From IMG/VR virus record IMGVR_UViG_2713896785_000018: a stretch of 7,671 nucleotides of DNA. One strand, 5' to 3'. This document shows, piece after piece, positions 3,943-4,507 of this stretch; the first letter of the stretch is position 1, and each line of letters begins with the position of its first letter. Below the pieces are notes generated by a model, which was not told the DNA's origin, did not search any database, and saw nothing but the letters and a program-made list of their open reading frames with translations. This DNA comes from a virus (Duplodnaviria > Heunggongvirae > Uroviricota > Caudoviricetes). The position numbers and the translations under genes were made by a program.

Positions 3943-4061
3943 TCATAGTCCTCTTTCAGAGATGAACATTCAAACAGCATTTTCAGTATGGTAAAGCGCG
4001 GGTGCGTTGAGGATGCCTGACACATCAGAGGTGGCGGGAGATTACTCCCCCGCCTGGTCTC

Positions 4062-4217
4062 TTACTTCTCAGATTCGTAGTCTACGAAGACAGCGACCTC
4101 CGTCTGACCGGTTCGGATTCGCACCTCGCAGAGGTCTTTCCTCGTTACCAGTGCCGTCACTATGACGGTTAAACAGATGACGATCAGGGCGATTAACATC
4201 GCCTTTTGCTGCTTCAT
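4062..4217 (-). CDS. hok: Hok-family type I toxin (51 aa, Hok/Gef/RelF-like)
   Basis: MKQQKAMLIALIVICLTVIVTALVTRKDLCEVRIRTGQTEVAVFVDYESEK: a single TM helix and the conserved RKDLCEVRIRTGQTEVAVF core. Near-identical to chromosomal HokC/HokD as recalled. SD AAGGAGAAG lies upstream. Confidence 0.85.
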   Translation of the reverse strand: MKQQKAMLIALIVICLTVIVTALVTRKDLCEVRIRTGQTEVAVFVDYESEK

Positions 4218-4274
4218 AGCCTGCTTCTCCTTGCCTTTCGGCACGTAAGAGGCTAACCTACATGTGTTCAGCAT
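4062..4274 (-). CDS. mok: Mok-like reading frame (70 aa) initiating upstream of and in frame with hok
   Basis: The extension MLNTCRLASYVPKGKEKQA- matches MokC as recalled (MLNTCRVPLTDRKVKEKRA-MKQHKAM...). Its start codon region lies in the predicted Sok target. Confidence 0.55.
   Translation of the reverse strand: MLNTCRLASYVPKGKEKQAMKQQKAMLIALIVICLTVIVTALVTRKDLCEVRIRTGQTEVAVFVDYESEK
4231..4259 (+). promoter_or_regulatory. candidate sok promoter (-35 TTGCCT, 17 bp spacer, -10 TAACCT) embedded in the mok/hok 5' coding region
   Basis: Plus strand reads TTGCCT-ttcggcacgtaagaggc-TAACCT. The arrangement parallels plasmid R1 sok (TTGCGC - 17 bp ending ...GTAAGAGGC - TATCCT) as recalled. Confidence 0.45.
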
Positions 4275-4338
4275 GGATTGAGCCTCAGATTAATGTTAAG
4301 CGTCTTGCAGGACGCGTAATGTTAACTGGGGCTTTTCT
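4266..4338 (+). ncRNA. sok: Sok-like antisense RNA (antitoxin), approximate ends
   Basis: Antisense to the mok translation-initiation region. It contains the hairpin GCGTC-ttgcag-GACGC (4300-4315), flanked by a TAATGTTAA direct repeat, and ends near GGGGCTTTTCTCT. It is syntenic with R1 sok; the ends are inferred, not mapped. Confidence 0.45.
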
Positions 4339-4392
4339 CTATCTGCCGTTGGTGTTCATGCCCGAGGCAGATAGCCTCAAGCACCCGCTGCA

Positions 4393-4421
4393 ATTCTACT
4401 TAACTATCCTTTTCCCGCAAA
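4393..4421 (-). promoter_or_regulatory. candidate hok promoter (-35 TTTGCG, 17 bp spacer, -10 TAGAAT)
   Basis: Minus strand reads TTTGCG (4421-4416), 17 nt, TAGAAT (4398-4393). The predicted start near 4388 coincides with the 5' fold-back element GCGGGTGCTTGAGG. Confidence 0.35.
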
Positions 4422-4507
4422 CCGTTTTTATCCCCAGCGGCAAATCGAATACACCACCAGCGCCACCGCCATCGCAATTCCTACCGTTGTGAATGCTTCA
4501 GGCCAGG

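Follow-up and report, generated by a model that had tools for sequence, protein, structure and literature searches.

An intact and most likely functional hokW/mokW/sokW allele of the hok/sok type I toxin–antitoxin family on an Escherichia coli lambdoid prophage

The hok/sok modules are the best-studied family of type I toxin–antitoxin systems. On phages, a locus of this family was named and annotated in 1999 as hokW, mokW and sokW in the Stx2 phage 933W, and a near-identical copy on Sp5 was tested functionally in 2021 (Takada et al. 2021, PMC8621323). Here we analyse the minus strand between positions 3990 and 4430 of a 7,671-nt stretch of viral DNA (IMG/VR record IMGVR_UViG_2713896785_000018), referred to below as the window, for which a sequence-only reading had proposed a complete hok/mok/sok locus. 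We conclude, with a probability of about 0.93, that this locus is an intact, most likely functional allele of hokW/mokW/sokW, a hok/sok type I toxin–antitoxin module carried by an E. coli lambdoid prophage. The locus is already known and nothing about it is new; beyond five substitutions, the copy differs from the studied 933W/Sp5 locus only in its genomic position. It therefore matters little as a discovery, and the additions made here are modest: a base-resolution regulatory map of a W-type allele, a mok start that is fixed while its frame varies, and a cassette found at differing positions in lambdoid phages.

Functional data are available for the Sp5 copy. Expression of HokW caused growth arrest, a hokW–sokW fragment in which sokW was expressed from its own promoter was harmless, and mutation of the sokW -10 element restored toxicity, with partial rescue by sokW supplied in trans. 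Neutralisation by sokW was partly dependent on RNase III and Hfq. Both hokW and sokW RNAs were detected on Northern blots in an Sp5 lysogen; upon mitomycin C treatment, sokW vanished in a RecA-dependent manner and HokW accumulated in the inner membrane. Deletion of the Sp5 locus delayed growth arrest and halved phage release, while growth under normal conditions was unaffected (PMC8621323).

Compared with hokW/mokW/sokW of 933W, the 401-nt region studied here is 99.5% identical over 399 nt, and VT2-Sakai (Sp5) and many other Stx phages give the same 99.5% match. The Hok and Mok proteins are identical to HokW and MokW of 933W/Sp5, and the alignment shows that the coding DNA is identical to that of 933W. 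The 933W record AF125520 explicitly annotates all three genes; when mapped by alignment, hokW falls at 4217–4062, mokW at 4274–4062 and sokW at 4266–4336 on the plus strand (71 nt). Five substitutions, none of them coding, separate the two alleles over ∼490 nt. Three lie upstream of the mRNA start, one (position 4309) is in the loop of the target hairpin, and one (position 4054) is at the base of the post-stop hairpin, where it adds one base pair. The earlier remark that the locus looks functional most likely holds, as judged from the experiments with the 99.5%-identical Sp5 copy encoding identical proteins. The sequence-only reading had not identified the locus as the named and characterised hokW/mokW/sokW of 933W/Sp5. 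A 501-nt query over the locus retrieved 505 E. coli records with at least 99% identity, and the 25 matches listed for this query were all 100% identical, mostly from O26, O111 and O145 Shiga toxin-producing E. coli. A hok relative of some kind is present in 4716 of 5426 genomes.

The proposal that the locus is complete was borne out in every part open to testing: the RF01794 leader, the PF01848 toxin, a 70-codon mok, the helix between the 5′ element tac and the 3′ fold-back inhibitory element (fbi), and Sok are all present, and the coordinates given in the sequence-only reading hold. A covariance-model search, named in the earlier reading as a way to check it, gave a match to Rfam RF01794 on the minus strand at 4386–4212 that scored 113.5 bits (gathering threshold 59, E-value 5.7e-26) and covered model positions 1–157 of 157. 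This model is named ‘sok’ (antitoxin) and runs along the strand of the hok mRNA, its first position corresponding to the mRNA 5′ end and its last three to the hok AUG. RF01794 thus marks the hok leader, and the Sok RNA lies on the opposite strand inside the match. The same orientation is seen in two further loci (matches at 602–754, minus, and 277–453, plus), in K-12, where the model matches the hokC strand and sokC is annotated opposite, and in an R1-type plasmid, where it matches the hok strand. When positions 3850–4550 were searched against Rfam at a permissive E-value, only sub-threshold chance matches were otherwise obtained, to ceN48 (23.9 bits, against 70) and CsrC (11.8 bits, against 61). 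Rfam holds no separate model for the hok 3′ end.

Chromosomal hok loci of K-12 are inactivated by insertion sequence (IS) elements, point mutations or rearrangement, and the locus in the window could be a decayed, non-functional remnant of the same kind. In K-12, hokD is without the whole leader and hokC has IS186 adjoining and no fbi at the expected place; in addition, the prophage that hosts the present locus may be defective, with a RusA or DnaC-like pseudogene in some carriers, and both promoters of the locus are weak by consensus. However, all elements here are intact and in register, with no IS element or frameshift. The proteins are identical to the active HokW and MokW, and the sok -10 element and the whole leader equal those of the tested allele except for one loop base. 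Decay is therefore very unlikely, and an intact allele remains our reading of the locus.

The sequence-only reading had predicted that the two ends of the mRNA pair with a single bulge. Read on the minus strand, GCGGGTGCTTGAGG (4388–4375) and CCTCAACGCACCCGCGC (4012–3996) form 14 Watson–Crick pairs with one bulged C (position 4006), exactly as proposed. The first of these elements is tac (GCGGGUGCUUGAGG, minus strand, 4375–4388), whose partner is fbi in the full-length RNA and the ucb element in an alternative fold of the truncated RNA; the second is fbi itself (CCUCAACGCACCCGCGC, minus strand, 3996–4012). Folding of the minus-strand transcript, another check that had been suggested, gave a minimum free energy (MFE) of −168.4 kcal/mol for 4388–3990, compared with −121.6 ± 5.9 kcal/mol for dinucleotide shuffles (z = −7.93), and none of 100 shuffles was as low. 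The tac/fbi helix belongs to this MFE structure, and in the partition function each of its 12 pairs from G4386 has a probability of 0.97–1.00. Since RNAduplex of the 170-nt flanks gave meaningless whole-length duplexes, a 16-nt tac probe was used against the 3′ untranslated region (UTR). The probe bound at −27.3 kcal/mol, compared with −15.2 ± 2.5 kcal/mol for shuffled UTRs, of which none in 200 was as low.

Covariation was assessed in a sample of 80 hok loci, one genome per species, by identifying in each locus the 5′ element that resembles tac and searching the 3′ UTR for the sequence that pairs best with it. In most intact loci of the sample, the fbi equivalent lies 45–58 nt after the hok stop codon and co-varies with tac; the covariation spans ∼60 hok loci of other Enterobacterales. 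The W/D-type pair is GGGUGCUUGAGG with CCUCAA-C-GCACCC, whereas the R1-type pair is GGCGCUU with AAGCGCC. The corresponding pairs are GGGCGCUUGAGA with UCUCAAGCGCCC in Photorhabdus and GCGGGCGCUUGAGG with CCUUAAGCGCCCGC in Pantoea; in Mixta, GGGUGCUC-UGGAUC pairs with GAUCCA-U-GAGCACCC, and in Sodalis, GGGUGCUC-UGGAUC pairs with GAUCUG-C-GAGCGCCC (or GAGCACCC). The bulge differs among subfamilies. At the U/C position of helix 1, 20 distinct rows comprise 12 U-A, five C-G and two U·G pairs and one C-A combination. Cognate 5′/3′ pairs are on average 2.2 kcal/mol better than non-cognate pairs with a different tac, and none of 5000 permutations reached the cognate mean, a comparison in which relatedness is uncontrolled. 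Because of these compensatory changes, and because cognate pairs outperform the permutations, sequence comparison indicates that the fold-back pairing is a conserved, selected feature, intact here. The check thus adds independent covariation support for tac/fbi across Escherichia, Kluyvera, Photorhabdus, Pantoea, Mixta, Sodalis and Erwinia.

The complementarity of the two ends could alternatively be due to chance, or could serve as a transcription terminator only, with no regulatory fold-back. In favour of this, the helix is followed by GCUUUAC, and no other terminator was detected in the scan. Against it, the partner of the 3′ arm lies ∼375 nt upstream, exactly at the 5′ end of the Rfam leader model, the shuffled controls never reached the helix energy (0/200), and several compensatory changes on both sides of the helix are seen across genera, with the position of the helix fixed. 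We consider this explanation extremely improbable, the least credible of those weighed here, and retain the regulatory fold-back.

Two further observations were made in the course of the survey. Photorhabdus genomes carry several hok copies each, with a shorter leader (tac at about −145) and a tac/fbi helix that is fully compensated and free of bulges. In addition, hok loci of the E. coli or R1 type were found on short contigs labelled as a Veillonella parvula metagenome-assembled genome (MAG), Acinetobacter idrijaensis, Xanthomonas pisi, a Ferruginibacter MAG, Streptomyces morookaense and an Oscillibacter MAG; these most likely represent enterobacterial or plasmid contamination of the assemblies.

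A candidate mok-hok promoter lies on the minus strand at 4393–4421, with a -10 element TAGAAT (4398–4393; 5/6 consensus matches) and a weak -35 element TTTGCG/TTGCGG (4421–4415; 3/6). Judged by the spacing, transcription would start at about G4386, the base that corresponds to position 1 of the RF01794 model. With this 5′ end and a 3′ end presumed to lie just past fbi, the full-length mok-hok mRNA would span 3994–4386 (minus strand, ∼393 nt). The R1 hok mRNA is of similar length. The 5′ hairpin GAGGC-UAUCU-GCCUC that had been pointed out earlier is present at 4378–4364, as the core of a putative metastable hairpin (minus strand, 4358–4386) in which tac pairs immediately downstream, a role assigned by analogy with the R1 model (PMC9841398). 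In a 40-nt nascent RNA this hairpin has 11 bp between 4384 and 4358 and an MFE of −19.0 kcal/mol.

Further into the leader, the ucb or anti-Shine–Dalgarno (anti-SD) element AAGCCCC (minus strand, 4328–4334) pairs with the mok Shine–Dalgarno (SD) sequence and, in the truncated RNA, can instead form a 7-bp helix with tac that contains a bulged U. In the fold of the full-length RNA, the mok SD (GAGG, minus strand, 4283–4286, 8 nt upstream of the mok AUG) is sequestered, its G residues pairing with CCCC at 4331–4328 with a probability above 0.99. The Sok-target stem-loop of the leader (minus strand, 4282–4331) is the complement of the Sok hairpin and contains a 16-nt insertion relative to the Rfam consensus. 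Downstream of the hok stop codon, a GC-rich hairpin with loop GUAA occupies 4033–4054 on the minus strand and is likely the 3′ protective stem of the processed mRNA, again by analogy with R1, whose truncated mRNA ends in a stem-loop in which mutations lead to loss of function (PMC9841398). The hairpin itself, which the sequence-only reading had noted, is thus present (9 bp including one G·U), but the 10- and 8-nt arms as written there are not exact complements. When fbi is removed, the closed and open conformers of the truncated RNA lie within 0.3–1.7 kcal/mol of each other. The closed form combines the 5′ hairpin with SD/anti-SD pairing, and the open form contains the GGG(U)GCUU:AAGCCCC helix, with the SD freed from the anti-SD.

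The hok open reading frame (ORF; minus strand, 4062–4217) encodes 51 amino acids and is preceded by the SD sequence AAGGAG at 4232–4227. Pfam HOK_GEF (PF01848) matches its product at 79.8 bits (cut-off 22) over the full profile (positions 1–42), and the invariant residues (TRK.LCE...EVA.F..YE) are present. HokW is 92% identical to K-12 HokD, 80% to HokC and 45% to R1 Hok. The mok ORF (minus strand, 4062–4274, 70 amino acids), taken from the ORF list, maps to mokW of 933W and is in frame with hok, starting 57 nt upstream of the hok AUG; its product is therefore an N-terminally extended Hok whose last 51 residues are the Hok peptide that starts at 4217. Most of the ∼60 distinct loci compared have their mok start codon at the fixed position −57/−58 relative to the hok AUG, but the frame varies: in-frame loci give an N-extended Hok of 68–71 amino acids, shifted loci give 50–70 amino acids, and the frame flips even between close relatives. 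A fixed start with a varying frame suggests that selection acts only on translation through the hok start, in line with the published view that what counts is the translation of mok and not its product (PMC9841398).

On the opposite strand, a sok promoter was assigned to 4231–4259, with a -35 element TTGCCT (4231–4236), a 17-nt spacer and a -10 element TAACCT (4254–4259); transcription would start ∼7 nt downstream. The -35 element overlaps the hok SD on the other strand. The promoter has 7/12 consensus matches, which is under the scan threshold, and sequence alone cannot tell it from chance. It is assigned because its position agrees with the sokW annotation of 933W and because the published promoter-less mutant alters the same -10 element: primer YO-421 converts TAACCT to GAGCCG (PMC8621323), and this hexamer is the one at 4254–4259 that we had assigned from position. 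The promoter stretch is identical to that of the Sp5 allele, whose activity is shown. The sokW position and the YO-421 mutant thus support the earlier proposal of a sok promoter inside the mok/hok 5′ coding region, and the toxicity expected when that promoter is mutated has already been demonstrated for the essentially identical Sp5 sequence (PMC8621323).

The 933W annotation, mapped by alignment, places the 71-nt Sok antisense RNA at 4266–4336 on the plus strand. This agrees with the ∼70-nt plus-strand RNA that had been predicted at 4266–4340, and the RNA was seen on Northern blots for the Sp5 copy (PMC8621323). Sok folds into a single-stranded 5′ tail of ∼9–13 nt, a long hairpin and a U-rich tail, UUUUCUCU (−31.5 kcal/mol, z = −5.2). 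It overlaps the mok start by 9 nt, like K-12 sokC and mokC.

Taken together, the elements can be arranged in a model whose steps follow the R1 paradigm (PMC9841398), except where Sp5 results are named. A weak promoter with the -10 element TAGAAT would give rise to the ∼393-nt mok-hok mRNA, the nascent 5′ end of which would fold into the local hairpin during transcription. In the completed RNA, tac (4388–4375) would pair with fbi (4012–3996), a pairing seen in silico together with covariation. The mok SD would then be held by AAGCCCC, so that the full-length RNA would be neither translated nor bound by Sok. Slow 3′ trimming to the GC hairpin (4054–4033) would remove fbi, after which the mok SD could be released by pairing of tac with the anti-SD. 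Ribosomes on the in-frame mok would open the hok start, and the 51-amino-acid Hok would enter the inner membrane and kill or lyse the cell. As long as it is present, the unstable 71-nt Sok would base-pair with the processed mRNA around the start of mok and block Hok, with partial involvement of RNase III and Hfq, as shown for Sp5. Loss of Sok would allow Hok to be made; with the Sp5 copy, the effect demonstrated after prophage induction is that cells lyse earlier and release ∼2-fold more phage.

Several points weigh against the reading of the locus as an intact, functional module of this kind. The published experiments concern the Sp5 copy, and the present allele differs from 933W by five substitutions and by its genomic position. 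As to 3′ processing of the hokW mRNA, the Sp5 study noted only smaller bands (PMC8621323). ViennaRNA slightly favours the closed conformer of the truncated RNA (−137.9 kcal/mol, compared with −136.3 kcal/mol for the open one); activation upon trimming is thus compatible with the folding, not proven by it. A consensus scan of both strands found no promoter or terminator at threshold and no canonical mRNA terminator. Finally, mok is in frame with hok, unlike in R1. The R1-like architecture that had been described therefore stands as far as the order of the elements is concerned but does not extend to the mok frame.

Matches to the whole window, at ∼99.5%, were found in 383 E. coli genomes, and the window corresponds to the early-right and nin region of a lambdoid prophage. 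The gene order is a DnaC-like loader, DUF1627, small ORFs, DUF551, hok/sok and BOF (YgiW-like), followed by a hypothetical protein, DUF968, RusA, DUF1133 (Q-like), an HTH protein, tRNAs, TerB and nanS-p; all of these context genes are on the hok strand. No stx gene is annotated in either of the prophage stretches examined. An internal stop codon is present in RusA (window 1884–2135) of some carriers and a frameshift in the DnaC-like gene of others, so that a fraction of the host prophages may be defective. The window contains four masked runs of exactly 50 N (993–1042, 2255–2304, 2617–2666 and 5394–5443), which interrupt the DUF968 ORF and a few others, and the window (7671 bp) is ∼240 bp shorter than the genome segment to which it corresponds (7913 bp).

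Homology to 933W is limited to ∼976 bp, in which window positions 3551–4526 are 97% identical to positions 2363–3338 of the 933W stretch. This shared cassette of ∼1 kb consists of the 3′ end of the DUF551 gene, hok/sok and the BOF/YgiW-like gene. The genomic position is not shared with 933W/Sp5, since the cassette is in the nin region here and at the right end of 933W. Genomic position is not a defining feature of the hok/sok family. Because the homology is confined to these ∼976 bp and the positions differ, the sequence comparison indicates that the hok/sok–BOF cassette is mobile among positions in lambdoid phages.

The distribution of the cassette bears on what the module does for its carrier. 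It could be functional and yet serve mainly to stabilise the prophage or the cassette through post-segregational killing, or to exclude other phages, rather than to promote lysis and release. The R1 paradigm is plasmid maintenance, and R1 hok/sok lowers the plating of T4 (cited in PMC8621323). The position of the same ∼1-kb cassette varies from phage to phage, as it would for a selfish module, and in the window the cassette sits in a non-Stx, possibly defective prophage, where aiding release would bring no benefit. However, a single-copy chromosomal prophage is rarely lost, and the sole direct data for this allele family are a lysis and release phenotype, with no effect of the deletion on normal growth (PMC8621323). 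A main role in stabilisation or exclusion is accordingly somewhat unlikely, although it is the alternative that we take most seriously, and a role in lysis and release, as seen with Sp5, is preferred.

The sense orientation of the cassette inside the early-right (PR) unit raises a further, more doubtful idea. At induction, antiterminated read-through from PR might collide head-on with the sok promoter and yield 5′-extended hok RNAs in which tac is no longer 5′-terminal. If true, this would couple the loss of Sok and the production of Hok directly to prophage induction, and would offer a mechanism for the RecA-dependent disappearance of sokW that the Sp5 study left unexplained. We regard the idea as improbable; it would be at best a position-specific variant, since the Sp5 cassette sits elsewhere.

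Among known systems, K-12 hokC(gef)/mokC/sokC resembles the present locus in that mok is in frame with hok and shares its stop codon, and RF01794 scores 118 bits on the K-12 locus. It differs in having IS186 immediately downstream, with no fbi at the expected place, and its leader is ∼19 nt shorter than the one here (tac at −150 from the hok AUG, compared with −169). K-12 hokD (relF) of the Qin prophage has kept the SD, the coding region, the post-stop hairpin and fbi (93.8% identity over 242 nt by blastn). The alignment spans only from ∼16 nt upstream of the hok AUG through fbi; upstream of that, the 3′ end of relE adjoins the hok SD. Thus, hokD is without tac, anti-SD, Sok target, mok start and sok promoter, and an RF01794 search of the K-12 hokD region gave no match, which upholds the contrast drawn by the sequence-only reading between hokD, behind relBE, and the present copy with its own promoter, mok and sok. 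The Qin neighbourhood is related, with DUF968/ydfU and Q downstream of hokD. A plain deletion from such a prophage does not account for the K-12 relBE-hokD arrangement: in the E2865 prophage, relBE is found ∼6 kb upstream of hok but is encoded on the opposite strand, whereas the relBE pair of K-12 Qin adjoins hokD directly and on the same strand. The ‘relBEF’ arrangement therefore needs more than a simple deletion.

R1 parB and F flm have the same order of elements as the locus described here: tac, metastable hairpin, anti-SD, Sok target, mok SD, mok, hok, 3′ hairpin and fbi. The mok start at −57/−58, the sok promoter at the homologous position and an mRNA of ∼390–400 nt are also shared. The differences from R1 are minor. 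In R1 and F, mok is in another frame and encodes an unrelated 70-amino-acid peptide. The tac/fbi core is GGCGCUU/AAGCGCC in R1, compared with GGGUGC.../...GCACCC here, the Sok/target hairpin is 16 nt longer here than in R1, and the replicon is a plasmid in the case of R1 and a prophage in the present case. The closest relatives remain 933W and Sp5, which have the same Sok coordinates, the same sok -10 element and the same downstream BOF/YgiW gene. In 933W, the cassette is located at 58.4 kb of 61.7 kb, and its two neighbours to the right, L0135 and L0134, are encoded on the other strand, whereas the cassette described here lies in the nin region.

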